This document shows, piece after piece, positions 3,504-25,109 of a stretch of DNA of 64,000 bases. How positions within the stretch are numbered: the stretch's first letter is position 1; every line of letters starts with the position of its first letter. The position numbers were made by a program, and so were the translations under genes. This DNA comes from a phage: sequence record PV808484.1, one strand, 5' to 3'. The notes below the pieces were generated by a model that saw nothing but the letters and a program-made list of their open reading frames with translations, was not told where the DNA came from and ran no database searches.

Positions 3504-4019
3504 CTAGTAAAACCCCTTAACAATTTGTATTAACTCGGCACAACGGTTGACCAACTTTTCCTCGCACAATACACGTTGTGGCATATGTTGTATAATATAC
3601 TCCATTTGCTCATGCCATGTCCACTTTTCTTTTTTGTCCGGGATAACATCACTAGCACGAGAATTATCTTTTAATGTTTGTATAATCCAATTGCTTGGAA
3701 AGTGCTCTCCACCTTTCTTAAATGGTTTATAGTGTCCTAGAGTGAATTGAGAATCCCCTGTTAGAGCACCCAATTTATTTAGATGGATAATCAAACTACG
3801 AAACACGTAGTATTCATAGATGTTATCCACCGTATAGCAAGCATAATATTTCAAGATGCCCTTATCTCGCGGATACTTACCAACATCCAGATTACACCAG
3901 TTGACATTTTCTGGATCATAGTGGTGTTCCTTAAGCCATATTTCTCTTTCATCAAAGTCTGGATATATTACCGCCCTGCTTACAGAGTCAACAAGTGGAG
4001 ATTGAGCATCAAAAAACAT
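3504..4019 (-). CDS. hypothetical protein
   Basis: 171 aa ORF; operon context. Confidence 0.5.
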   Translation of the reverse strand: MFFDAQSPLVDSVSRAVIYPDFDEREIWLKEHHYDPENVNWCNLDVGKYPRDKGILKYYACYTVDNIYEYYVFRSLIIHLNKLGALTGDSQFTLGHYKPFKKGGEHFPSNWIIQTLKDNSRASDVIPDKKEKWTWHEQMEYIIQHMPQRVLCEEKLVNRCAELIQIVKGFY

Positions 4020-14980: not shown

Positions 14981-15076
14981 ATGATCAAGAAAGAAAACAG
15001 CTTGACGGTTGGAACGATTAACGCTATCATTTTCGCCGTTCCATTTTGGGTTGTAGTAGCGGTTATTATCTTTTAA
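14981..15076 (+). CDS. small hydrophobic peptide (31 aa), type I toxin-like
   Basis: MIKKENSLTVGTINAIIFAVPFWVVVAVIIF; about 120 nt leader containing a 6-codon mini-ORF (MQDGQR) with AAGGAGG SD. Confidence 0.35.
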   Translation: MIKKENSLTVGTINAIIFAVPFWVVVAVIIF

Positions 15077-15084
15077 AAATATTC

Positions 15085-15141
15085 TTGACAACGTTTTTTA
15101 ATCTGATAAGATGTATCACATAGGGCGGCAATAGTGCCGCT
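15085..15141 (+). promoter_or_regulatory. promoter plus 5'-UTR hairpin cassette
   Basis: TTGACA-16-TAAGAT then CATAGGGCGGCAATAGTGCCGCTCATA. Confidence 0.55.
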
Positions 15142-15164
15142 CATAACAGAAGAGAGAAATAATC

Positions 15165-15437
15165 ATGGCATCATATAGCGCATCAATGATCGTAATGGGT
15201 ATCACTGGTAAACCTATGCGCGGTGGCGGATCTTTCGCTAACATCAATATTGATGGACGTTTATCCCTGGACGCAGCGATCACAGTGGCACGGGAAACAT
15301 TTAAAAAAGAATGTAATTTCAATAAACAAGATTATCTCGGTTTCGCTATTGAAAAAACCGCGCGATTTGTGGATTATAAAAGCCCGAAAATGATCGACAC
15401 TACACTAAAAGCGAAAGATGTAGCGTTTTTGCTTTAA
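15165..15437 (+). CDS. hypothetical protein
   Basis: 90 aa ORF downstream of cassette. Confidence 0.55.
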   Translation: MASYSASMIVMGITGKPMRGGGSFANINIDGRLSLDAAITVARETFKKECNFNKQDYLGFAIEKTARFVDYKSPKMIDTTLKAKDVAFLL

Positions 15438-15440
15438 GAC

Positions 15441-15501
15441 TTGACACTGAAAAATAATTTGGTAATATATACCACATAAGGCGGGGAAATGGTTTCCCGC
15501 C
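15441..15501 (+). promoter_or_regulatory. promoter plus 5'-UTR hairpin cassette
   Basis: TTGACA...TAATAT then GGCGGGGAAATGGTTTCCCGCC. Confidence 0.55.
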
Positions 15502-15526
15502 AAGCCATCAAAGAAAGGGTAACACA

Positions 15527-15889
15527 ATGAGCAAGCAAATCAATACTATCATGTTAAACCTGGTATCTTTCCGCGATGACGTGAAAAATCTTTCGCGTGA
15601 TGCAGTGGATGCACGGATCGAAAGCTATCGCACACAGATCGCAACATTACCGTTAAAACGTGATCAACATGCCGCTAATATGATGCTTGATGCTATGATT
15701 AAAAAGATGATTCAATGTGATCTTACTCTGGCTTATGAATATGCTGGCGATCTTTTTGTAACATATAACAAGCCCGTTCCAGGTATGAGCACCACGGAAG
15801 AATTGCATGCCTTAAATCTGCGACAAGATGCATGGGATAACATGCGCCGTGTTATGGTATGGGTAGAAAGCGGTAAAATTTACGAATAA
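15527..15889 (+). CDS. hypothetical protein
   Basis: 120 aa ORF; AAAGGG SD. Confidence 0.55.
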   Translation: MSKQINTIMLNLVSFRDDVKNLSRDAVDARIESYRTQIATLPLKRDQHAANMMLDAMIKKMIQCDLTLAYEYAGDLFVTYNKPVPGMSTTEELHALNLRQDAWDNMRRVMVWVESGKIYE

Positions 15890-15895
15890 AAACGG

Positions 15896-15950
15896 TTGAC
15901 ATTGCACTAAAACCTGATAAGCTATCTTAAAGCGGGAATAGTTCCCGCTT
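15896..15950 (+). promoter_or_regulatory. promoter plus 5'-UTR hairpin cassette
   Basis: TTGACA then AAGCGGGAATAGTTCCCGCTT. Confidence 0.5.
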
Positions 15951-15967
15951 ACATAGGATAAAACTTT

Positions 15968-16114
15968 ATGAAACAATATGTAATGAGTATTCACACCAAA
16001 AACGGCGCTACTGTTACGACTCCGGCACGGTTTGCACTTGTAAACCGTTGCAAGAGACTAAAACGAGAGCTAAAAAACAACCGTGCAACGGGCTTTAAAC
16101 GCTGGGGAGGATAA
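15968..16114 (+). CDS. small basic protein (48 aa)
   Basis: hand-translated MKQYVMSIHTKNGATVTTPARFALVNRCKRLKRELKNNRATGFKRWGG; cassette upstream. Confidence 0.4.
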   Translation: MKQYVMSIHTKNGATVTTPARFALVNRCKRLKRELKNNRATGFKRWGG

Positions 16115-16116
16115 TC

Positions 16117-16389
16117 TTGTTTTTTCTAAAAGTTTTTGATAATGTGATCGCTTTTGAACATGCTGCAACGTTCAACCTGGCGAGATACGCTATCAGGTTT
16201 AAAGATAATGTTTATCCCCGTGCTGGTGGCGGTTACACTATCTTTAATCATCGTAACGCTCAATTAACGGATATAACGAATCCAGATCCTGGAGTGTATC
16301 GCATAGGTTGGCTACCGTCAAAAGACGCGGCAAGCATGTTTAAGGTGTGTAAACTACTAACAGAAGAGGCGAACGAACATGGGGCGTGA
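16117..16389 (+). CDS. hypothetical protein (probable TTG start)
   Basis: no in-frame ATG near 5' end; GGGGAGG SD 6 nt before TTG. Confidence 0.4.
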   Translation: MFFLKVFDNVIAFEHAATFNLARYAIRFKDNVYPRAGGGYTIFNHRNAQLTDITNPDPGVYRIGWLPSKDAASMFKVCKLLTEEANEHGA

Positions 16390-16933
16390 ATATGTGATCC
16401 AGTCCTGGGTAAAGCATGATGCTGATGATCCGCGCATAATACCAGATGACATGATCGATCACATGGTAGGGTATAGCGGGGAGCAGATAGGAAATCGAGC
16501 GGCAAAGAGCAACGGTCACACAAAAACGCGATCCGTTCGCCCTGGTTGGCTGGCAAATGGTAACGCTGACATTGCAAGCGCCGCAGATCCAAGCGATGAC
16601 GCTAAAAATAATCCCTTATACAGCATTGATCCGGCTTTTAAGGTGTTAGAAGAGTATCCCGCTAAATTAGCCGCACTAGATAAAGCATATGAAGAAAAGC
16701 GCATGGCATGGACGGTATACAACACCGCTAAAATGGTGCTAGATGCAAAATTGATTAAAGCCCAGGAGAAGATCAATAAACTTGTTACCATAGCGCAAGA
16801 GGAAGACCAGGACGACCAGGAGGAAGAGGAAGAAATCATGCCTACCCTGGAAGAGGAAGAGATCCAGCCATACATGCCGACGGAAGAGGAAAAAAGACAA
16901 GCCCTAAAAAATTATGAAAATTGTGTTGTGTAA
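16379..16933 (+). CDS. hypothetical protein with acidic C-terminus
   Basis: 184 aa; ATG overlaps upstream stop; EEDQDDQEEEEE tract. Confidence 0.5.
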   Translation: MGREYVIQSWVKHDADDPRIIPDDMIDHMVGYSGEQIGNRAAKSNGHTKTRSVRPGWLANGNADIASAADPSDDAKNNPLYSIDPAFKVLEEYPAKLAALDKAYEEKRMAWTVYNTAKMVLDAKLIKAQEKINKLVTIAQEEDQDDQEEEEEIMPTLEEEEIQPYMPTEEEKRQALKNYENCVV

Positions 16934-16936
16934 GGC

Positions 16937-17042
16937 TTGACATATGCAAACAAGCCCCGTAATATGTACCACATAAAGCGGGGCAACGCCCCATAAGGTG
17001 AAATAAAAAATCACTTGACACCTGAAATCAGTAAGCTATAAT
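16937..17042 (+). promoter_or_regulatory. tandem promoters, first with 5' hairpin
   Basis: TTGACA-17-TAATAT then AAGCGGGGCAACGCCCCAT; second TTGACA-16-TATAAT. Confidence 0.5.
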
Positions 17043-17079
17043 GCTTATATAGATTGAAACATTACTAAGGAATAAAAGC

Positions 17080-17259
17080 ATGGCTATTATTGCAAAGACT
17101 GAGATCGTAGGTTTAGATTCTATCATCCTGGCATATGAGGAAGCTATAGAAATGTATGTGGTTTCCTATGGTGATTATATCCGTGAATATAAATCTATTG
17201 ATCTAGCTTTTGAATGCTATATTCGCCAGGTCAATAAAGCCTATGATGATTATCGTTAA
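17080..17259 (+). CDS. small protein (59 aa)
   Basis: hand-translated MAIIAKTEIVGLDSIILAYEEAIEMYVVSYGDYIREYKSIDLAFECYIRQVNKAYDDYR. Confidence 0.4.
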   Translation: MAIIAKTEIVGLDSIILAYEEAIEMYVVSYGDYIREYKSIDLAFECYIRQVNKAYDDYR

Positions 17260-17354
17260 AAGTTTTAGTCTTGTGCTATTGACAACGAACGATAGTGCAA
17301 GCATAATAACTTTTATCGGGAATACTCCTAACTAATCAAAAGAGATTAAAGACT

Positions 17355-17720
17355 ATGGCTAAAAATATCAATGTTTCTGCTTATGCTACCCTGGCTAACA
17401 CTGCTAAAATTGAACTATCCAGCATTGAAGCGGTACATATTAGCGCCCGTCGCTGGTTTCAAAAGTCTTATGGTAACACTTATTTCTCTTTGATGGTTGA
17501 CGTTGAGATCGGCGGTAAACTGATTGAAGTCGTTAACGTTCCGTTTCACTATGGCTACGGGGATCATTTTGATACCGTTGCCCTAGAAGAGTTTAGCAAG
17601 GTTATCAACCTGGAAGGTAAAGAATTTTCAAATTATGCCTACCTTTCCCGTTTTTGCCGTGATAATGGGATCGCTGTATACAGTCATGCAAGCGATGTTA
17701 AACGTAAAAAAGATTTATAA
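17355..17720 (+). CDS. hypothetical protein
   Basis: 121 aa ORF; TTGACA-type promoter about 17280. Confidence 0.55.
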   Translation: MAKNINVSAYATLANTAKIELSSIEAVHISARRWFQKSYGNTYFSLMVDVEIGGKLIEVVNVPFHYGYGDHFDTVALEEFSKVINLEGKEFSNYAYLSRFCRDNGIAVYSHASDVKRKKDL

Positions 17721-17726
17721 AAAGCA

Positions 17727-17754
17727 TTGACAGCACGAATAAAAAGCGTAAAAT
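17727..17754 (+). promoter_or_regulatory. sigma70-like promoter with no ORF directly downstream
   Basis: TTGACA-16-TAAAAT; followed by about 85 nt structured noncoding sequence. Confidence 0.4.
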
Positions 17755-17840
17755 GTTTCATATCAGGACGGGGAACGAAGTAACACCCCGTTAAGTAGCC
17801 CAGGAGTAAGACACACGAAAAACTCCCCTGATAAAATAGT

Positions 17841-17901
17841 TTGACAATGGTTTCTAATAACGTATAATACTTACATCGAGAGCGGGAACACTTCCCGCCT
17901 C
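17841..17901 (+). promoter_or_regulatory. promoter plus 5'-UTR hairpin cassette
   Basis: TTGACA-16-TATAAT then AGCGGGAACACTTCCCGCC. Confidence 0.55.
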
Positions 17902-17923
17902 ACTGAAAAAAGAGATTAACATC

Positions 17924-18163
17924 ATGGCTAAATCTAAAATGTTCTTAGGTCACAAAAACAAAACTCATTGGAATGTAAGCCTTTGGATCAACAACGATGA
18001 AGGTTTTTATAATCTTGCGCGTGAATTTATCGCAGCTAACACCAATAAGAATGACGCAGCGCGTGATATGATGTTATTTCTTGAAAGTATGGATCAAGAT
18101 AAAACGCCAGACGGATTCAAGTTCAGTAAAACCGCGATCCGTGCCGCTATGGTTGGAATGTAA
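17924..18163 (+). CDS. hypothetical protein
   Basis: 79 aa ORF. Confidence 0.55.
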   Translation: MAKSKMFLGHKNKTHWNVSLWINNDEGFYNLAREFIAANTNKNDAARDMMLFLESMDQDKTPDGFKFSKTAIRAAMVGM

Positions 18164-18258
18164 AGGAGACATAAAAATGAAACATCGTTCGACCTATCTC
18201 ACAAAACGTTTTAGCTTAGATCATAAATTGGGCTATTACGGAAGAAATAGAAAATAAT

Positions 18259-18318
18259 TTGACAACGTTTTAAATTAGTGTAAGATATATCACATAGGGC
18301 GGGAAATGGTTTCCCGCC
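18259..18318 (+). promoter_or_regulatory. promoter plus 5'-UTR hairpin cassette
   Basis: TTGACAACGTTTT...TAAGAT then GGGCGGGAAATGGTTTCCCGCC. Confidence 0.55.
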
Positions 18319-18340
18319 AAATCAAAGAAAGGTTATCATT

Positions 18341-18568
18341 ATGGCTATCATTATTGTTCGCGTATCCGGTACGGTTGGAAGCTCCCAGGTAGTAGCAGTT
18401 ATCACAGAGAAGAAAGGGGATGATCTTCACTCTTCCTTGAATAGTTGGGCGGTCGCTAATTTTGGTCAGTGGTCGAGCGTCGAGTATATCGAATCCTACC
18501 AGGTGCCGACGATTAGCCTAACCGATTTAAATGTTGATCGCTTGTTGTGCCTGGATGGATTAAACTAA
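18341..18568 (+). CDS. hypothetical protein
   Basis: 75 aa ORF. Confidence 0.55.
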   Translation: MAIIIVRVSGTVGSSQVVAVITEKKGDDLHSSLNSWAVANFGQWSSVEYIESYQVPTISLTDLNVDRLLCLDGLN

Positions 18569-18576
18569 AAATAATC

Positions 18577-18633
18577 TTGACAAGATAACTAAAATCAGTA
18601 AAATGTAATGCATAGGGCGGCAATAGTGCCGCT
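18577..18633 (+). promoter_or_regulatory. promoter plus 5'-UTR hairpin cassette
   Basis: TTGACA-16-TAAAAT then CATAGGGCGGCAATAGTGCCGCTCATA. Confidence 0.55.
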
Positions 18634-18655
18634 CATAGTAAGAGAGATTATCAAA

Positions 18656-18871
18656 ATGGCTAATATCCGCACACTGTTAAAAAATGCAAGTCAAGTTTTA
18701 TTTTCAGATGACGAGTATTTCAACAAAGACATTACAGGCGTGAAAAATTTAAAAGACGTGAAGGATGTTATCGGTATCCGTGGATCTTTACGTAAAGGTG
18801 ACATATACGGTAACAAGGTGCAATATAAACTGTCAAAAGATTATGATTTTACTTTGACAATTATCAATTAA
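18656..18871 (+). CDS. hypothetical protein
   Basis: start at internal ATG (MANIRT) downstream of cassette. Confidence 0.5.
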   Translation: MANIRTLLKNASQVLFSDDEYFNKDITGVKNLKDVKDVIGIRGSLRKGDIYGNKVQYKLSKDYDFTLTIIN

Positions 18872-18882
18872 GGGATCACAAA

Positions 18883-19041
18883 ATGAAAACTTGCCAATGT
18901 GGTAAAAAGTCTATCTCTGGTTTAAAACGTGGCGTTGCTCTTTGTCAATATCACTATAACGCTCAAACGTGGGGTAAGCAGTGGGCGGATCAGATGGAAG
19001 AGGCAAAGAAAGAAAATATAAAAGTAGTTGCAAAGAAATAA
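18883..19041 (+). CDS. small Cys-containing protein (52 aa)
   Basis: hand-translated MKTCQCGKKSISGLKRGVALCQYHYNAQTWGKQWADQMEEAKKENIKVVAKK. Confidence 0.4.
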   Translation: MKTCQCGKKSISGLKRGVALCQYHYNAQTWGKQWADQMEEAKKENIKVVAKK

Positions 19042-19112
19042 AAATAAAGTAAACTGTATTCATCAAGGCGGTGGAATAGCCCACCGCCTAACAAAGAGAA
19101 GAGGAAAACATC

Positions 19113-19283
19113 ATGATCACTTTCGCTACCCGTGAAGCCGCTCGCAACGTTGCACGTAAAGTTAACGCCGCCAACCTGGGCGCTACGTTTAAAGCCCCGG
19201 TGAAAGATGAGTCAGGAAAATGGATCTTCCCTGGTCTGCGTCACGCTGATAAGCTGGGAACATTAACGTTAAAAAATAAATAA
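19113..19283 (+). CDS. small protein (56 aa)
   Basis: hand-translated MITFATREAARNVARKV...; preceded by hairpin GGCGGTGGAATAGCCCACCGCC. Confidence 0.4.
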   Translation: MITFATREAARNVARKVNAANLGATFKAPVKDESGKWIFPGLRHADKLGTLTLKNK

Positions 19284-19290
19284 GATCCGC

Positions 19291-19349
19291 TTGACAGTAG
19301 CATGATTTATAAGTAAAGTAACAACAACGGCGGGAAATGGTTTCCCGCC
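19291..19349 (+). promoter_or_regulatory. promoter plus 5'-UTR hairpin cassette
   Basis: TTGACA-17-TAAAGT then GGCGGGAAATGGTTTCCCGCC. Confidence 0.55.
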
Positions 19350-19369
19350 ATCAATAAAGAGATAAGATT

Positions 19370-19729
19370 ATGAAATCAGTAAAAGCAATCAAAACTTACA
19401 TTGTATCGGCTATTTCTTTTGAAGGTACTACAACCGAAAAAGAAAAAATCACCGAACTGATGCGCCGTTTTAATTCTGAATACTGGTATCCCGATAATCA
19501 AAAACGTTACAATTATAACGTGATCAAGGCGATAGCCTCATGGTTACAAGGTTTACCGTCAGACATTAACATCGCCTTTGATTATAACGAGATCGATCAC
19601 TTGTTAATTGAATGGAAGTACATAAAAGAAACAAGCAAAGAAACAACCGTTACCCGTGAGCGGGAAAATTATTGGTTATATATTGCAAGCATGATCGTAA
19701 TCCTGGCAAAACAGCATAACGTGGCGTAA
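19370..19729 (+). CDS. hypothetical protein
   Basis: 119 aa ORF. Confidence 0.55.
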   Translation: MKSVKAIKTYIVSAISFEGTTTEKEKITELMRRFNSEYWYPDNQKRYNYNVIKAIASWLQGLPSDINIAFDYNEIDHLLIEWKYIKETSKETTVTRERENYWLYIASMIVILAKQHNVA

Positions 19730-19743
19730 TTAAGAGGAAGAAA

Positions 19744-19881
19744 CATGAACGCATCACAGCAGATCGAAAAATTCAACCGCAGCAAGGCGCGTAAAGATTG
19801 GAACGAAGAGATCACCAAAAAAGGCGACAAGCGGAACAAAACAAAAAGAGATCGCAGCACAAAAAGACACTGGAACGAATA
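19744..19881 (+). CDS. small basic protein (45 aa)
   Basis: hand-translated MNASQQIEKFNRSKARKDWNEEITKKGDKRNKTKRDRSTKRHWNE; terminator follows. Confidence 0.35.
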
Positions 19882-19887
19882 ACAAAA

Positions 19888-19910
19888 AAGGGCGCAATAA
19901 GCGCCCTTTT
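19888..19910 (+). terminator. rho-independent terminator
   Basis: AGGGCGC-AATAA-GCGCCCT then TTTTA. Confidence 0.6.
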
Positions 19911-20000
19911 AGCTTATATAGAGGCTTGTTACCCATAGGCAATGGTAACGCCAGGGCAAGCCTATAAACAACGTTAGACGGCTTTACAGGAGCTTTAAAA

Positions 20001-20183
20001 ATGAGATTAGAAGAAATAAGCAAGGCACTAGCCCAGGGGCAAAGGTTATGCGCCAGATATCGTGATCAATATGGCTTCATAACTAGCGGCGTGATCCTGG
20101 GGATTGAAGGCAATAAGATTTTTATTGACACGTTGAAAAACGTTGTATATAGTGACAATATAATCTCAATAAAACATATATGA
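20001..20183 (+). CDS. hypothetical protein
   Basis: 60 aa ORF. Confidence 0.45.
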   Translation: MRLEEISKALAQGQRLCARYRDQYGFITSGVILGIEGNKIFIDTLKNVVYSDNIISIKHI

Positions 20184-20593
20184 GGCAAGAAATGAAAAAC
20201 TTATTGATCGCTGGTTTACTCTCTTTTGGTATGGTTGGAACATCTAGCGCGGCGATATCCTCCACAGTAGCAGAATTAAGCGCCGTTGATGCAATGGAAA
20301 ACGTCATGCTTATTAATAATGCGATCCCCGATGAAATCATGGAGGATTCACACATGATCGCTTATGGTGCTGTTACACAACTAACGGCAAAAATAGATAA
20401 ATCTATTGTTAATGGCTTAAATGAAGATGTACCATGTGAAATTATTACCAGTGTGCTTACTACTCAAAATTTTACGCCGTGGTTAAAAAGTATTCAAAAA
20501 GTACACAGTACAGCCGCAGATCGTAGCAATGAAAAACTAGTGTCAGCACTTGCAACGTATACCCTAGCAAAATGCACCGAGATAAAAGATTGA
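20180..20593 (+). CDS. predicted secreted protein
   Basis: N-terminal KNLLIAGLLSFGMVGTSSA signal-peptide-like segment. Confidence 0.5.
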   Translation: MRQEMKNLLIAGLLSFGMVGTSSAAISSTVAELSAVDAMENVMLINNAIPDEIMEDSHMIAYGAVTQLTAKIDKSIVNGLNEDVPCEIITSVLTTQNFTPWLKSIQKVHSTAADRSNEKLVSALATYTLAKCTEIKD

Positions 20594-20616
20594 CAACATA
20601 GAAAGCACGTTATAAG
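20590..20616 (+). promoter_or_regulatory. sigma70-like promoter
   Basis: TTGACA-15-TATAAG, then AAGGAG SD. Confidence 0.45.
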
Positions 20617-20640
20617 ATACACACAACAAAGGAGAACTAC

Positions 20641-20943
20641 ATGAACGGCATAGCTAAAACGTTTTTTCTTTTTTCTGGTGTAAATGATCCATCAATAAAA
20701 GTCGATAGTGTAAAAGAAAACAATACTATCACCGCTAAATTGTTTCAAGATGAAACAAATAACGTGCTAATCATTAATCTTAAAGAAATAACTAAAGGTT
20801 ATTATACTATTGCTTACCATGCAATCTATCATGCTGGTACTAGTGAGGAAGTGCAAACAAGCAACAACGAAAGCGCGGCGCTACCTGGTGATCTGGTGCT
20901 GGGCGTTATCAGTTTAATTGTCAATGATTTTTTTAAGGAGTAA
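20641..20943 (+). CDS. hypothetical protein
   Basis: 100 aa ORF. Confidence 0.55.
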   Translation: MNGIAKTFFLFSGVNDPSIKVDSVKENNTITAKLFQDETNNVLIINLKEITKGYYTIAYHAIYHAGTSEEVQTSNNESAALPGDLVLGVISLIVNDFFKE

Positions 20944-20947
20944 AACC

Positions 20948-21043
20948 ATGCCCTATTTACATTTATTTTTCGGTATCTTATTGACAGGATCTTTTTTCTT
21001 CTGTATGCTTGTTTCTATTGTAAACCACGTTTTAAGACATTAA
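20948..21043 (+). CDS. small hydrophobic peptide (31 aa)
   Basis: MPYLHLFFGILLTGSFFFCMLVSIVNHVLRH. Confidence 0.3.
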   Translation: MPYLHLFFGILLTGSFFFCMLVSIVNHVLRH

Positions 21044-21052
21044 GGAAACAGC

Positions 21053-21172
21053 ATGAAAATTATTCCCGTACAATATAGCGTAATAAATCCAGCATACGAG
21101 GAAGGAAGGAAAACAAGCATGGCTTTATGTTGTATTGCTACTATAGCCATGTTGTTATGCATTGTGTTTTAA
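21053..21172 (+). CDS. small hydrophobic peptide (39 aa)
   Basis: MKIIPVQYSVINPAYEEGRKTSMALCCIATIAMLLCIVF. Confidence 0.3.
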   Translation: MKIIPVQYSVINPAYEEGRKTSMALCCIATIAMLLCIVF

Positions 21173-21272
21173 TAGGTTTTATAGTTGTACGCTTTAAAGG
21201 CTTGACAATTTTTTGTTATGCTTTAAACTATATCTTGAAAACGGCAAAGGCCGCAAACAAAAGGGTAAAATT

Positions 21273-21596
21273 ATGAAATCTGTGATCGGTGTTTATTTGG
21301 ATAACTCTGATTTTTTCTATCATCGCGCTCGTTTCCTTGATGCGATTGAAATGATAGAATCAGGCTTTAAAGAGTATCGCCTTGCACATGATGACCTGGA
21401 AGCATTACAGGGCAATAGTGTTTTTACATTGCAAGCTAAAGCACTATGCAAAAGCCGGATCGACATTGCGAGCAAAAAGATAGAACGCGGCATGTCCTGG
21501 TTGCGCACCGCAGAAATCAACATGGGGCAATGGTACGGCGAAAACTTAGAAAATAAACATGCTTTTGTCAATGTAGAAAATATTGAAGATTATTGA
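21273..21596 (+). CDS. hypothetical protein
   Basis: start at internal ATG (MKSVIG) after AAAGGG SD. Confidence 0.5.
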   Translation: MKSVIGVYLDNSDFFYHRARFLDAIEMIESGFKEYRLAHDDLEALQGNSVFTLQAKALCKSRIDIASKKIERGMSWLRTAEINMGQWYGENLENKHAFVNVENIEDY

Positions 21597-21658
21597 TTGA
21601 CAGCACACCTAACGGGTAGTATATTGTATCTCATAGAGCGGGGAAATGGTTTCCCCGC
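21597..21658 (+). promoter_or_regulatory. promoter plus 5'-UTR hairpin cassette
   Basis: TTGACA-17-TATATT then GCGGGGAAATGGTTTCCCCGC. Confidence 0.55.
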
Positions 21659-21678
21659 CATCAATAAAGAGATAAGCT

Positions 21679-21963
21679 ATGAAGATCACAAAAGCACTTT
21701 CCAACTATGCAGCACGTCGCGGATTATGTTTAACCGTTGAAAATTTAGGGAAAGAAGATTTTTTGTGCTTTTGGGAGCTTGAGAATGATAATGAGTGGAT
21801 CTTCTCTTATTCTATCTGCGAAGATCAAAACGGTTGTTTATTAACCTGGCGCGGTAATATCTATCTACCGGAAGAAATCAAAGAAGAATTACCAGGCACG
21901 ATCATGACTGAGAAACAGCTTAAGGAAGTGATCAATTTTGTAGGGCAAAACATTAAAAAATAA
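21679..21963 (+). CDS. hypothetical protein
   Basis: 94 aa ORF. Confidence 0.55.
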   Translation: MKITKALSNYAARRGLCLTVENLGKEDFLCFWELENDNEWIFSYSICEDQNGCLLTWRGNIYLPEEIKEELPGTIMTEKQLKEVINFVGQNIKK

Positions 21964-21964
21964 T

Positions 21965-22022
21965 TTGACAGCAGAAAAACAACGTAGTAAAGTTTATCAC
22001 ATAGGGCGGCAATAGTGCCGCT
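21965..22022 (+). promoter_or_regulatory. promoter plus 5'-UTR hairpin cassette
   Basis: TTGACA-17-TAAAGT then CATAGGGCGGCAATAGTGCCGCTCATA. Confidence 0.55.
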
Positions 22023-22044
22023 CATAACAGAAGAGAAACAAATC

Positions 22045-22215
22045 ATGATCCCGACTATGTTTTATGTATCGCGCAAAGGTCACAATATTTTTTGGTCTGA
22101 AGATTTAAATGAAGCCATGACGTTTGCCCGTGATCGTGTTGCTATCGGTGGCGTTAACATTACTGTAACCGATGAAAATGGCATTGAATACTATAACGGC
22201 GACGATGAAGAGTAA
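22045..22215 (+). CDS. small protein (56 aa)
   Basis: start at ATG (MIPTMF) downstream of cassette. Confidence 0.45.
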   Translation: MIPTMFYVSRKGHNIFWSEDLNEAMTFARDRVAIGGVNITVTDENGIEYYNGDDEE

Positions 22216-22260
22216 TTAACAAGGCGGGGAGTATTCCCGCCGTCAATAAAGGATAATATC

Positions 22261-22398
22261 ATGAAAACTTTCAACGCAACAGCATCAACAATTGGTTATA
22301 TTATCACCGTGCAAGCTATTGATCTAGTAGCTGCAACAAACAAGATTAAAAACATGATCCCTGTAGGCAGTGATTTTTCCGTTTGGGAAGTAAAATAA
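22261..22398 (+). CDS. small protein (45 aa)
   Basis: MKTFNATASTIGYIITVQAIDLVAATNKIKNMIPVGSDFSVWEVK; hairpin GGCGGGGAGTATTCCCGCC upstream. Confidence 0.35.
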   Translation: MKTFNATASTIGYIITVQAIDLVAATNKIKNMIPVGSDFSVWEVK

Positions 22399-22401
22399 AT
22401 C

Positions 22402-22463
22402 TTGACAGTGATTTGTTATTTGATAAGATGTACTACGTAGGGCGTGGCAATAAGGCAACGCCC
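22402..22463 (+). promoter_or_regulatory. promoter plus 5'-UTR hairpin cassette
   Basis: TTGACA-17-TAAGAT then GGGCGTGGCAATAAGGCAACGCCC. Confidence 0.5.
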
Positions 22464-22484
22464 CACATCAGAAAGGGAAAGATT

Positions 22485-22721
22485 ATGACTATAGCAACAG
22501 TATTAACCGCCGTTAAAACCGCCGAATCATCCGGCTTGCATGTTGAGATTATAGATCAACCAGGTGGCGATCTCCTTGTCCAGGTTTACCCGCCGAAAGT
22601 AGGGGATGATTATTATTGGTGCTATTCTGATACGTTCGAACAAGTAGACACGAAAGCGATCACGGCTTTTATTTTAAAAGCTATTGAAGAAAATAACTTT
22701 CATTATAACATCAATCAATAA
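22485..22721 (+). CDS. hypothetical protein
   Basis: start at internal ATG (MTIATV) after AAAGGG SD. Confidence 0.5.
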   Translation: MTIATVLTAVKTAESSGLHVEIIDQPGGDLLVQVYPPKVGDDYYWCYSDTFEQVDTKAITAFILKAIEENNFHYNINQ

Positions 22722-22763
22722 ACCATAAGCGGGGCAGTAACGCCCACTAATGAGGGTAAAATC

Positions 22764-22868
22764 ATGTTAGAGAAAATTTTCACGGTTGTAGTAGTGGGCC
22801 TGGCGTTATCGGTTGGAGTGGTTGCAACTATGGCTAACATGATTCTATCTTCTCACGGTATTGGATAA
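22764..22868 (+). CDS. small hydrophobic peptide (34 aa)
   Basis: MLEKIFTVVVVGLALSVGVVATMANMILSSHGIG. Confidence 0.3.
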   Translation: MLEKIFTVVVVGLALSVGVVATMANMILSSHGIG

Positions 22869-22878
22869 GGTGAATCAA

Positions 22879-23094
22879 ATGATCACGAATAAGACAGGTA
22901 AAACAGAATTTTTACGCGGCTTGCAAATAGGTAAACCTGAGATCTGGCATTGCACTAAATCCGCGCATAATGAAATGAAAGATTTTACCGCTACTTTACA
23001 ACGTGTTAAAATATCTATCACACAGAAAAAAGCCTTGTTAGTAGTAGAAAACGAGATCCCGCAAACTATTATTATTGTCGAGCGTACAGCATGA
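22879..23094 (+). CDS. hypothetical protein
   Basis: ATG (MITNKTG) with AAGGTG SD. Confidence 0.5.
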   Translation: MITNKTGKTEFLRGLQIGKPEIWHCTKSAHNEMKDFTATLQRVKISITQKKALLVVENEIPQTIIIVERTA

Positions 23095-23477
23095 AAACAG
23101 AAATCATTATTGAAATCATCAACGGTTATAAAGAAGCCTTTATTTTTGCTGAATCCGCCAGGGATCATGAAGGTAATTTTATTGATAACTTGACTGATTA
23201 TGATTTTTCAGATCAAGCCCATCAGCGGATCATTCATGACGTAGCGGCTTATTGTGATGCCAATGATGCCGCTATCTCTGAGGCAATGAGCGACGGCGCA
23301 ACAGCCAACCAGATCGGGAATGATTTACATTTTACCCGTAATAGTCACGGCGTAGGCTTTTGGGATCGCCCTGAAATATACACTACTAACACCGCCAACC
23401 GCTTAACTAATGCAGCTAAATTGATGCCATCGGTGCATGCTTACATTGGTGAAGATAATTTGATTTATATTGAATAA
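23091..23477 (+). CDS. hypothetical protein
   Basis: 128 aa ORF; ATGA overlap. Confidence 0.55.
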   Translation: MKTEIIIEIINGYKEAFIFAESARDHEGNFIDNLTDYDFSDQAHQRIIHDVAAYCDANDAAISEAMSDGATANQIGNDLHFTRNSHGVGFWDRPEIYTTNTANRLTNAAKLMPSVHAYIGEDNLIYIE

Positions 23478-23483
23478 AAAGTA

Positions 23484-23542
23484 TTGACACCGATCCCCAA
23501 TATGGTACTATTTACCACGTAGGCGGGAAATGGTTTCCCGCC
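23484..23542 (+). promoter_or_regulatory. promoter plus 5'-UTR hairpin cassette
   Basis: TTGACA then GGCGGGAAATGGTTTCCCGCC. Confidence 0.55.
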
Positions 23543-23565
23543 AGGTAATCAAAAAGGTAAATACT

Positions 23566-23955
23566 ATGCGCAACCTGGTTTCTGTTTCTAACGTTGAAAA
23601 ATTTCAATCTTTACAGGGTATCGTTAACAACGTAGCGCCTTTTTTAGTCAACGGCTTGATTGCAAAGATGAAAAATAAACATCATGCGGCATGGTCTGCT
23701 TACTGCTTTGATAATGATGAAAAAGCGGCTGAAATGATGTTAAATATGCTGTTAGACAGTGTAGAATCATCTTTACCGGAAAACATCGCAGAAGAGATCA
23801 CCTATCGTTATAATATGGCGATCACTTACCAGGAGGTTGCGCAATTTAATATGATGGACGATGACGAACAACAGGATCAGGAAATTTTCTGGGAGTATGC
23901 AGATCGTCAATCGGCTTTTGATGAAAAGTTAGCGATGTATTATAACGAATATTAA
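23566..23955 (+). CDS. hypothetical protein
   Basis: start at internal ATG (MRNLVS). Confidence 0.5.
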   Translation: MRNLVSVSNVEKFQSLQGIVNNVAPFLVNGLIAKMKNKHHAAWSAYCFDNDEKAAEMMLNMLLDSVESSLPENIAEEITYRYNMAITYQEVAQFNMMDDDEQQDQEIFWEYADRQSAFDEKLAMYYNEY

Positions 23956-23970
23956 TACACGGTAAAAGAA

Positions 23971-23997
23971 AGGGGCGCACTAAGCGCCCTTTTTTGT
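23971..23997 (+). terminator. rho-independent terminator
   Basis: GGGCGC-ACTAA-GCGCCC then TTTTTTG. Confidence 0.7.
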
Positions 23998-24341
23998 ATT
24001 CTTTTTTCACAATGGAAGCGACACGTAAAGAATAGGCGTAAAAGGTGGCGTAAAACCATCTAAAACCGACTGTAACCGCTTAAACAAGGCAGGGATGATT
24101 AATCCCCTTACCAGGATGAAAAAGCTGTTAGAGAGCTATTCATAGCGTTTAAAGCACATAGGAAATAATTTGCTTTTTATCTTGCCTTTTATCCTGCTTT
24201 TGATTATTATTATGGAACGGGCGGCACCTGGGGACAGGGGAAGATAATCACCGGAAGATCCCGCTATATATTGATAGCTAATACCTATTAAACAACAAAA
24301 CATCAAAGGGATAAACTATCAAATCTTTACAATCCTACCTA

Positions 24342-24400
24342 TTGACACACGATCACCCTTATACTAATATGTATCCCGTAGGCGGGAAATGGTTTCCCGC
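24342..24400 (+). promoter_or_regulatory. promoter plus 5'-UTR hairpin cassette
   Basis: TTGACA-17-TAATAT then GGCGGGAAATGGTTTCCCGC. Confidence 0.55.
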
Positions 24401-24419
24401 TTGATATAGGAATCATACC

Positions 24420-24650
24420 ATGATCGAACAAATTAAAAGCACTCAAAATGTTAACGGCAATGTGTTCCACTTTATCGGCAATAAAGGAAAAGGCGTACCC
24501 TACGCCGCCGTAACCGTGCAACCTAATGGCGATTATTGGTTTACCGTGTACGGATCATACTCTTTCGGACGCCCGGCACATGATAAGATCTTGCAAGCGG
24601 TTAAACCTGCGGGGAAGAATATTACAGCAGAAAAATTTTATAAAAAATAG
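24420..24650 (+). CDS. hypothetical protein
   Basis: 76 aa ORF. Confidence 0.55.
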   Translation: MIEQIKSTQNVNGNVFHFIGNKGKGVPYAAVTVQPNGDYWFTVYGSYSFGRPAHDKILQAVKPAGKNITAEKFYKK

Positions 24651-24725
24651 CTTGCTTTATTTCTTCTGTTAACTTATAGTTATCGCGTAGGGCAAACAAT
24701 TTTAAACGGTAGACGAGGAATCACC

Positions 24726-25109
24726 ATGAGCAATATCATCAACCTGGCAGCGACTGTAAACGGTAAAGACTTTAACGGCGCTGTAGACCGTGATCCTATG
24801 TGGTGCTTATCAGTGTTTAAAGGCGATCTGGTTGAAGTTAGAACAACCGAAGGGTATAGCGATGATTATAAATGCGAGATCCATTTACATAACTGGTACA
24901 CGGGGAAAACTTATGCGCTGAATCACGCGTTTATCGGGAAAATTGAATATCGCGAGATGATCGACGATGAAACGGGGCAAGATTTTAGTGATTATGTTTA
25001 TATTCGTTCAGAAACATTAGCCGAACGTTTGATCGAGAAAATGAAAGCAAAAAATAAAATTAATTTAGCTCATTGGCTTGATATAACAAATGATCCGGCT
25101 TACAAGTAA
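24726..25109 (+). CDS. hypothetical protein
   Basis: 127 aa ORF; GAGG SD. Confidence 0.55.
   Translation: MSNIINLAATVNGKDFNGAVDRDPMWCLSVFKGDLVEVRTTEGYSDDYKCEIHLHNWYTGKTYALNHAFIGKIEYREMIDDETGQDFSDYVYIRSETLAERLIEKMKAKNKINLAHWLDITNDPAYK

Follow-up and report, generated by a model that had tools for sequence, protein, structure and literature searches.

The region from 17727 to 17840 of the phage DNA analysed here, a 64,000-nt stretch of sequence record PV808484.1 (in the following termed the window), very probably encodes a member of a conserved family of structured early-leader RNAs that is shared with phage T7 and is carried on a mobile cassette; this degree of confidence refers to the identity of the element and does not extend to any mode of action. 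Sequence comparison shows that the motif is defined by two invariant elements on a short helix of 4-5 bp, P3: a single-stranded junction, UAAGUAG-N-C, and a loop, UAAG-N-C..A.GAAA. The window conforms to the family pattern, in which a helix of 4-5 bp with the loop (N)UAAG-N-C-NN-A-N-GAAA(N) begins 2-4 nt after the junction. An earlier note on this DNA had described an orphan promoter followed by structured noncoding sequence and had suggested that the latter may either encode a small RNA or be the remnant of a lost gene. The structured-RNA alternative is borne out, as the motif is conserved and supported by covariation in several phage lineages including T7. The remnant is not: indels in the loop of hairpin P2 are not multiples of three, no frame is conserved, and the core of the element is 88-92% identical between lineages as compared to 68-79% nucleotide identity for the early genes that these lineages share.

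The cassette begins with a σ70-type promoter on the + strand, identified in a consensus scan (-35 element TTGACA at 17727-17732, 16-nt spacer, -10 element TAAAAT at 17749-17754), which agrees with the earlier note and matches the consensus in 11 of 12 positions. The promoter, which is presumably active in the PV808484.1 phage, is predicted to start transcription at ~17761-17762. As had been claimed, the stretch ahead of the next promoter, at 17841, is free of open reading frames (ORFs), the + strand having none of at least 25 aa between 17730 and 17924; the ORF-free stretch that follows the upstream promoter comprises ~72 nt (17762-17832). A micro-ORF was rejected, since its ATG at 17753 sits in the -10 element, frames and stops are unconserved and the loop indels are not multiples of three. 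ARAGORN found no tRNA or tmRNA gene in the window.

On the + strand the predicted transcript comprises three helices. The 5' strand of P1, (U)AUCAGG (17761-17767), is located at the predicted 5' end and pairs with the 3' strand, CCUGAU(A) (17827-17833), immediately 3' of P3, resulting in the 7-bp helix UAUCAGG/CCUGAUA, so that the segment 3' of P3 closes the fold. Hairpin P2 consists of ACGGGG (17768-17773), a variable 12-nt loop (17774-17785) and CCCCGU (17786-17791). It is followed by the single-stranded junction J, UAAGUAGCCCA (17792-17802), assigned from the alignment and from the census with model R2 (see below), and by hairpin P3, in which GGAGU (17803-17807) and ACUCC (17822-17826) enclose a conserved 14-nt loop, AAGACACACGAAAA (17808-17821). 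An A-rich linker (17834-17840) leads to the next promoter. The whole RNA folds as a three-way junction P1/P2/P3, with P1 at 17762-17767/17827-17832, a minimum free energy of -21.2 kcal/mol and a z-score of -2.2, the z-score of the minus strand of the same region being -0.8. Thus, the CGGGG-N12-CCCCG hairpin described earlier is real, but it is only one of the three helices of the junction. The invariant AGUA of the junction (17795-17798) and GAA of the P3 loop (17817-17819) may resemble the bulged-G signature of loop E/sarcin-ricin motifs.

The covariance analysis across related phages that the earlier note had asked for was run, and P3 covaries family-wide. Among 26 distinct cores, UAAGUAG-N-C is invariant apart from one change, UGAGUAG, in phage EcoDS1, and 20 of the 42 core columns do not vary at all, 17 of them outside helices. 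Paired cells make up 90.4% of P3 as compared to 35-46% when the partners are slid, and there are 25 double-change cells vs. 10.8 ± 2.6 in shuffled alignments, with a covariation score of 0.515 vs. 0.181; neither value was reached in any of 500 shuffles. The pair counts at three positions are CG20/GC6, CG18/GC6/UA2 and UA14/AU11, and across the family the pair types of P3 include GG/CC, CC/GG, A-U/U-A and C-G/U-A. In a larger set of 35 distinct model-aligned cores 37 double-change cells were counted vs. 14.4 ± 3.0 (0/500), in an alignment that was fitted to the model and therefore leans towards the structure. For the main type of the element alone (see below) RNAalifold returns the same three-way junction; nearly all pairs are invariant there, the exceptions being a single double change (A-U to U-A) and four changes from G-C to G-U.

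The other helices vary more freely. P2 is optional in the motif, being absent from some diverged copies, but where present it pairs with at least seven different arm sequences across lineages, those elsewhere being CCGG/CCGG, CCAG/CUGG, CCAC/GUGG, CGGG/CCCG, CCCG/CGGG and GGGAUG/CAUUCC. The 3' arm of P2 varies by C-to-U only, i.e. from G-C to G-U, and these changes preserve pairing solely in the RNA of the + strand; because the wobble pairs are G-U on the transcribed strand, they point to RNA rather than duplex DNA. The 5' strand of P1 is invariant within the main type, and long closing helices of unrelated sequence are found in L048 (UCAACGAA/UUCGUUGG) and L052 (AUCGAAG/UUUCGGU). In T7-like phages, the segment 3' of P3 is complementary to the P2 loop instead and both change together, forming a covarying pseudoknot. 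Its classes are GUCAA/UUGAC (the 3' strand of which is the -35 element of promoter A2), GAUUAG/CUAAUC, GUCGGU/ACCGAC and GUCAUC/GAUGAC, and phage Kc318 has GUCAAG/CUUGAC; for each class, a 6-nt match would arise by chance with a probability of 0.008.

In T7 the motif is located at 549-587, between the annotated E. coli promoters A1 (+1 at 498) and A2 (626; its -35 element begins at 589). A1 is used by E. coli RNA polymerase (RNAP) at the onset of infection and A1 transcripts read through A2 and A3; the T7 copy of the motif is thus transcribed. A BLAST search with T7 530-592 retrieved 488 records, including T7, T3, phiYeO3-12, K1F, EcoDS1 and KP32-like Klebsiella phages, and also phage Hallingskeid. 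The motif is also present in Kc318, a member of a different Autographiviridae subfamily (Melnykvirinae), and in EcoDS1 it lies between two annotated host RNAP promoters. The link to T7 is not circular, since model R1, which was built from main-type copies only and contains no T7-like sequence, scores the T7-like loci L031 and L030 with 36.1 bits (E = 1e-7) and 26 bits, respectively.

Two further observations concern the T7-type leaders. In K1F (L075) the annotated coding sequence (CDS) 'gp0.1' (43-258) runs over the motif (203-244); this CDS appears doubtful, because the RNA is conserved across the motif. Most T7/T3-like early leaders (L030-L073) also contain a perfect rrn-type boxA (GCTCTTTAACAA), 24-382 nt downstream of the motif; that of T7 (L035) is located at ~813-824, after A3 and before the R0.3 site. 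This suggests that Nus factors may be recruited to T7-type leaders. No boxA was found in the window or in the KP32-like, jumbo, rV5-like and phi92-like contexts, and a Nus/boxA partnership was rejected as a general mechanism on the grounds of this restriction.

The main type is defined by a 78-nt core that was searched in 50,697 phage records and is present in 45 of them, which belong to three lineages: three Justusliebigvirus phages (outra, EmilieFrey and muut), four rV5-like Vequintavirinae (A73, W70, A7_1 and A5-4, with a diverged form in a fifth, LTH01), and nearly all Asteriusvirus jumbo phages, where it occupies two loci ~10 kb apart, or three in EJP2. Every copy has the same layout, i.e. 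a promoter, 7-8 nt, AUCAGGACGGGG..., an A-rich stretch and another promoter, with different flanking genes. No main-type core was found in 5,426 complete E. coli genomes or in a one-genome-per-species set of 185,579 bacterial and archaeal species, and scans of IMG/VR and metagenomes with the main-type pattern returned almost only 121Q-like contigs, plus chance matches. Beyond the main type, R1 matches the true 5' untranslated region (5' UTR) of gene 121Q_277 in Asteriusvirus (27 bits), the Salmonella/Klebsiella jumbo phages Munch and fENko-Kae01 (30.5 bits), LTH01 (28.7 bits) and the Erwinia jumbo phage Hallingskeid (24.1 bits), all scoring much lower than the main type, but significantly. These diverged copies keep the junction UAAGUAGAC.. 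and the loop AAGUC..A.GAAA. Their P3, in contrast, is changed from GGAGU/ACUCC to CCAGU/ACUGG, CUUGU/ACAAG or CCUG/CAGG, P2 is missing or has unrelated arms (GGGAUG/CAUUCC), and the sequence of the closing helix is unrelated, too. A 19-base pattern that fits all main-type and diverged members, TAAGTAGNCNNNNNGTAAGNCNNANGAAA, matched T7-sized contigs in IMG/VR. In the window, the core model R2 has a single match in 64 kb (17789-17829, 56.7 bits, E = 1.7e-13), and the exact junction/loop pattern lies at 17792-17820. Weak model matches in L057, L058, L063, L067 and L071 (21-25 bits) and in an archaeal metagenome-assembled genome (L034) were treated as chance.

The distribution of variation within the main-type element is uneven. 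In the P2 loop, 15 of 16 columns are variable as compared to 13 of 60 elsewhere (Fisher p = 1.7e-7), with a mean pairwise identity of 60% and 4-nt indels, whereas the unpaired junction and the P3 loop are 93-95% identical. This indicates that the element is under purifying selection on a specific sequence, and a loop free to vary next to a constrained core is the reason why we regard it neither as a decaying remnant nor as a recent neutral copy. The upstream promoter is found at the same position in every homologous copy of the cassette. More generally, a σ70-type promoter ends 9-61 nt before the junction and another one begins 3-48 nt after the core in nearly every instance; likewise, the window copy lies in sense orientation within ~100 nt of an early σ70 promoter, with the second promoter (17841) following. 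The genes that follow the motif represent no fewer than six unrelated families (phrog_871/DUF7249 for the window copy, and 5162, 8099, 13850, 14947 and 27871/20181), by which a gene-specific cis-regulator was rejected as a general explanation. In three distant jumbo groups the diverged copy is syntenic with one uncharacterised protein family (121Q_277, Munch_006 and Hallingskeid CDS0051; phrog_27871/20181; L006 4935-5527, L027 3605-4370 and L026 12011-12800, respectively), which may reflect an ancestral location of the motif or a gene-specific use of it. The copies sit on the first DNA to enter the cell, the T7 copy 0.55 kb from the left end and copies of several jumbo phages ~3.4-3.8 kb from the left end, in the direct terminal repeat; the copy of fENko-Kae01 (L029), e.g., is located at 3605-3668.

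The phage of the window is a phi92-like myovirus (Stephanstirmvirinae, Justusliebigvirus), and the region is 99.4% identical to outra and 99.2% identical to EmilieFrey/Bas61. Most Justusliebigvirus relatives are without the cassette, and the 1-kb neighbourhood is matched by most close relatives in two pieces with 90% coverage. VEcB lacks precisely the ~115-bp unit, the junction lying within the -10 hexamer and fusing promoter 1 to the leader of the next gene, and in ALITA the same slot holds a different cassette, composed of a promoter, a hairpin and a 60-aa gene. These sequence comparisons show that the cassette spreads by shuffling of the PeSL (promoter-early stem-loop) type, in which recombination takes place between the promoter/stem-loop repeats on either side of early-gene cassettes. 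In muut (L009 1992-2501) the element and the following 91-aa gene (phrog_14947) are 92-94% identical to Asteriusvirus copy b (L012/L013; G17, SD-2_S15). As other shared early genes are only ~70-79% identical, this indicates a recent transfer of the cassette between the 146-kb Justusliebigvirus and ~350-kb Asteriusvirus phages. Many genes of the array between 15000 and 25000 have homologues in rV5-like and Asteriusvirus phages at 68-79% nucleotide identity, which argues for a pool of early cassettes shared among these lineages. The muut copy (2001-2082) further shows one extra G in the G-run of the 5' arm of P2 and one extra C in the C-run of the P3/P1 3' segment; the two indels, being coupled, might reflect an alternative long-range helix, GGGG/CUCC.

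The motif family is apparently undescribed. Rfam 15 gives no gathering-score match in the window; at E ≤ 10 it returns only noise in 17650-17950 (17.8 and 14 bits vs. cut-offs of 75 and 36) and nothing relevant in T7 470-930. The open-access literature searched on T7 early leaders, boxA and phage noncoding RNAs contains no description of the motif or of its function. The T7 sequence serves there merely as template in work on promoters or is included in a 'non-coding internalisation signal', the region so called comprising T7 ~536-594 (PMC11863960).

Several points weigh against the identification as an RNA family. As the literature search was limited to open-access text, an older description in a subscription journal is possible. 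Covariation within the main type alone is not significant, with 54 of 500 shuffles being as good, for which reason the support for the fold is drawn from the wider family, and the short-stem versions of P1 in the other types (4-5 bp) are indistinguishable from chance. Promoter, start site and any 3' end in the window phage are predictions. The element is accessory in phi92-like and rV5-like phages, most relatives doing without it, and its main type resembles an ordinary cassette leader, with a 5' hairpin, AGGAG, and ACG at the place of an ATG. Descent from a gene leader is thus possible, which would not, however, make the element a dead remnant.

The next cassette starts directly downstream on the + strand with a σ70 promoter that matches the consensus in 12 of 12 positions (TTGACA-16-TATAAT, 17841-17868), followed by a PeSL-like leader stem-loop recognised from its sequence, GCGGGAA-CAC-UUCCCGC (17882-17898), and a gene of 79 aa (17924-18163, DUF7249/phrog_871) that is not specifically tied to the motif. 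The initial transcribed sequence of this promoter, ACTTACATCGAGAG (17862-17882), is closely similar to that of T7 A1, ACTTACAGCCATCGAGAGGG, and its pattern occurs only once within the window. Between ~15 and 25 kb a short G-run/C-run leader hairpin and a near-consensus promoter precede nearly every small + strand ORF, and 15000-25000 contains at least 20 near-consensus + strand σ70 promoters with TTGACA. As a class, promoter-like sites are modestly enriched in the region (62 vs. 42 ± 6 expected); the matches of 11-12 out of 12 are all located on the + strand, in front of genes.

A second stretch for which the earlier note had considered a small RNA or a lost gene, 23998-24340, appears to be of a different nature. 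A bidirectional intrinsic terminator (23967-23995, detected by the scan on both strands and annotated as terminator in phage Paula) ends the preceding gene block, and the sequence from 23996 to 24341 indeed lacks a credible ORF up to the promoter at 24342, the next gene starting at 24420. Its first part (23996-24182) is a Justusliebigvirus-specific noncoding segment that is present at full length in 49 Justusliebigvirus records (88-96% identity) and nowhere else, never lies inside a gene of another lineage, and is missing from PD06 and phiWec181. The second part (24183-24341) is a conserved promoter-upstream region with 84-88% identity across Justusliebigvirus and Phapecoctavirus. Repeats occur in both parts: two copies of GGCGTAAAA 12 nt apart (24035-24055), three tandem copies of the 12-nt TTGCYTTTTATC (24170-24205), which start in the first part, and an inverted repeat TTGATAG...CTATCAA (24271-24286 and 24307-24322) just upstream of the promoter (TTGACA-17-TAATAT, 24342-24370), which is followed on the + strand by a leader hairpin (24382-24400) and the gene at 24420-24650 (phrog_9227, Phi92_gp247 family). 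These repeats are possibly operator- or iteron-like protein-binding sites. The small-RNA proposal fails here, as no excess of folding over shuffled sequences was found (z = +0.17 for 23996-24182, +0.89 for 24183-24341 and -1.09 for the minus strand) and Rfam returned only terminator-like noise for the gap. Neither does the lost-gene proposal hold, as there is no homology to genes elsewhere and no conserved ORF. The sole ORF of the gap, which is 56 aa long, starts with TTG and lies on the minus strand at 24136-24306, corresponds to the EmilieFrey annotation bas61_0139 (L016 1255-1422, 55-56 aa); it was rejected due to a 2-nt deletion in phiWec181, the loss of its 3' third in PD06 and phiWec181 and the lack of a PHROG match, and is probably a mis-call. 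The gap is most economically read as spacer DNA with a regulatory or protein-binding role, located where a new transcription block begins.

How the RNA at 17762-17832 might act can be outlined as follows. The strong early σ70 promoter would have a ~72-nt structured RNA as its only product and the unit would thus be a self-contained RNA cassette, which host RNAP would transcribe within seconds of DNA entry. Closure of the fold falls to the segment 3' of P3, which pairs with the transcript 5' end in the window (P1) or with the P2 loop in T7-like phages (pseudoknot); the folded RNA would expose junction and loop, both invariant, to a factor conserved among Enterobacterales. We infer that the RNA folds in vivo as modelled and acts via junction and loop on such a factor.

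By analogy, we tentatively prefer a model in which the RNA acts in cis, its target being the host RNAP that transcribes it or the elongation complex, as known for the put RNA of phage HK022, although we hold this mode to be possible rather than probable. Against antitermination in cis, no obvious terminator is found between 17841 and 23967, unmodified polymerases are supplied in any case by the second promoter that follows directly, and only in T7/T3-like leaders is the motif found together with boxA. Somewhat unlikely in itself, but nearly as likely as cis action, is a small RNA or decoy acting in trans, i.e. the ~72-nt RNA would titrate or inhibit a host protein before phage proteins exist (e.g. 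an RNase, a regulator that binds RNA or a sensor of antiphage defence), its 5' end being shielded in P1 and its 3' end resulting from RNase E cleavage in the A/U-rich tail (AUAAAAUAGUUU). Such a decoy would account for an upstream promoter that has no other product, as the downstream gene owns a 12/12 promoter, and for the pairing of the very 5' end by P1; an accessory, horizontally exchanged early module resembles many anti-defence genes, the position on the first-entering DNA (T7 0.55 kb from the end; jumbo phages ~3.5 kb, in the terminal repeat) suits early action, and invariant unpaired nucleotides suit specific recognition by a protein. However, the element has no terminator or defined 3' end, and in T7-like phages a discrete RNA is not obvious, since the motif occupies positions +52 to +90 within a long leader and extends with its 3' strand into the A2 -35 element. 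Moreover, a search of 5,426 E. coli genomes, of low sensitivity for short seeds, revealed neither complementary nor similar sequence.

The remaining explanations survive less well. It is improbable that the fold merely serves as a generic 5' stabiliser or insulator that guards the transcript from 5'-end-dependent decay or attenuates read-through between cassettes, a role suggested for the stem-loops of PeSLs. Decay of this kind via RppH and RNase E is established, and a 5' end paired in P1 would hinder their entry; in addition, a promoter-proximal hairpin is found in every cassette of the array. PeSL stem-loops lowered reporter expression like terminators (PMC2839356). Yet, any stable hairpin would suffice for this purpose, leaving ~17 unpaired nucleotides that are invariant from T7 to jumbo phages unexplained, the motif is not at the 5' end in T7-like phages, and no U-tract is located behind the fold. 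Still less probable is an element acting at the DNA level, e.g. an activator- or factor-binding site for the downstream promoter or a recombination hotspot, with the RNA fold being incidental. In its favour, a σ70 promoter lies 3-48 nt downstream of the motif in nearly all instances, the motif overlaps the A2 -35 element in T7-like phages, and GGGG...CCCC stem-loops have been speculated to be recombination targets (PMC2839356). The spacing to the downstream -35 element, however, spans this whole range, the copies in the 121Q 5' UTR, L039, L048 and L052 have no adjacent strong promoter, and all copies are oriented in the same way with respect to the upstream promoter; furthermore, compensatory changes in three helices imply a folded single strand, and the G-U wobbles of the sense strand would be A-C mismatches on the other strand. 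Finally, a decayed gene cassette, i.e. a promoter, 5' hairpin, Shine-Dalgarno sequence and start codon whose ORF was deleted and which would spread only as a neutral passenger of recombination between promoters, is hardly credible and already largely refuted by covariation and cross-lineage conservation. In its favour, the layout is leader-like (start-proximal hairpin, AGGAG at 17804-17808, 8 nt, ACG at the place of ATG), the EJP2_a copy has an ATG with a 12-codon ORF, and in ALITA the slot is occupied by a genuine small gene. However, AGGAG is just one version of the covarying P3 helix (CCAG, CCUG, CUUG elsewhere), neither frames nor stops are conserved, and the lengths of the indels are not divisible by three. 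Junction and loop do not vary across five or more lineages, T7 among them, whereas the P2 loop varies freely; the motif is better conserved than neighbouring coding genes, and it is kept at 2-3 loci in nearly all Asteriusvirus and in 488 T7-like records.

Further candidates were considered and rejected. A host origin or an antisense target found no support, as there is no similarity in the 5,426 E. coli genomes or the one-per-species prokaryote set, with the same low sensitivity for short seeds. A CsrA sponge, suggested by two CAGGA motifs in the main type, was discarded since GGA motifs are not conserved in the other types, and mimicry of the 16S rRNA 3' end (AAGUCG...) was dropped as the likeness rests on variable positions. 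A CRISPR-repeat mimic, a hammerhead or pistol ribozyme and a riboswitch have no Rfam support and no expression platform, and decades of in vitro transcription from T7 A1 are not known to have revealed self-cleavage.

It is conceivable, if somewhat doubtful, that the family represents a new class of phage RNA effectors, i.e. compact pseudoknot or three-way-junction RNAs in the first transcripts made by host RNAP that would capture one conserved host machine before phage proteins are made, with RNAP or elongation factors, Rho, an RNase or an immune sensor as candidate targets. Unrelated virulent enterobacterial phages, namely T7-like podoviruses, phi92- and rV5-like myoviruses and jumbo phages of >340 kb, would then exchange this RNA as a promoter-flanked cassette. 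If true, this would assign a role in its own right to the A1-A2 spacer of T7, for ~40 years treated as mere promoter spacing. Few genetic systems have been studied as thoroughly as T7, and transcription assays routinely use its A1 region as template, yet the A1-A2 fold has neither a described function nor an Rfam family and is not mentioned in the literature searched. The occurrence of the motif in T7-like, phi92-like, rV5-like and several jumbo lineages, always in what would be the first transcripts made by host RNAP, points to a shared RNA-based step early in infection of Enterobacterales, and it indicates that promoter-flanked early cassettes can carry RNA genes and pass between very different phages. 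This may matter in practice, too, as such stretches are left blank or mis-called as tiny ORFs in phage annotation and the region is often trimmed or refactored in phage engineering.

Among known systems, the put RNA of HK022 (putL/putR), which acts in cis and renders host RNAP resistant to pausing and termination (PMC9378689), is similar in layout. It comprises ~70 nt with two stem-loops just after a phage early σ70 promoter (putL from ~+3), is made by host RNAP and works as RNA without a phage protein, whatever the downstream gene (PMC9378689); in the window, 72 nt with the hairpins P2 and P3 start at ~+1 of an early promoter. However, put, which binds the zinc-binding domain of the β' subunit of RNAP, is built from a pair of long, irregular stems along with a triplex and lacks any junction or loop like UAAGUAG...GAAA, and it precedes terminators, none of which is evident at the window motif. 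Membership in the put family was rejected, as R1 has no match in the HK022 genome and the best R2 match (9.6 bits, E = 0.54) lies in tail genes. Like λ nut and the rrn boxB-boxA-boxC signals, the motif is a promoter-proximal RNA signal with a hairpin and a conserved single strand, and the perfect rrn boxA downstream of it in T7/T3-like leaders adds to this likeness; the motif itself, however, is without boxA or boxB sequence and does not imply an N-like protein.

The cassette as such resembles the PeSLs of T4-type phages, in which early ORFans are inserted, deleted and replaced through recombination mediated by strong σ70 promoters and GGGG...CCCC stem-loops (PMC2839356). Mini-circles are a further trait of PeSL-type cassettes. 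Here as there, small early genes are arranged in arrays with a strong σ70 promoter and a GGGG...CCCC stem-loop before each (PMC2839356, PMC4122927). In the window, a strong σ70 promoter and G-run/C-run hairpins (ACGGGG/CCCCGU and GCGGGAA/UUCCCGC) are found intergenically in an early-gene array, close relatives differ by indels and replacements with breakpoints inside repeats (the VEcB -10 junction and the ALITA replacement cassette), and the window/VEcB/ALITA polymorphism as well as the sharing of cassettes between lineages fit an exchange of the PeSL type. PeSLs, however, are regulatory flanks of ORFan genes in T4-like phages (PMC2839356, PMC4122927), whereas the phages concerned here are phi92-like, rV5-like, jumbo and T7-like, and the content of the cassette is a conserved RNA motif and no ORF. 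The homologous motif of T7 itself is that of the A1-A2 leader (nt ~536-594), which has the junction AUAAGUAGACAG, the P3 helix CCUG/CAGG with the loop AUAAGUCGCACGAAAAA and a P2 hairpin before it, and which is likewise preceded by a strong early promoter for host RNAP and directly followed by the next one. The two differ in that the T7 motif begins at ~+38 to +52 behind another 5' hairpin and not at the transcript 5' end, and in the way the fold is closed, T7 using a pseudoknot between P2 loop and 3' tail that employs the A2 -35 sequence, and the window the P1 stem formed by the 5' and 3' ends.

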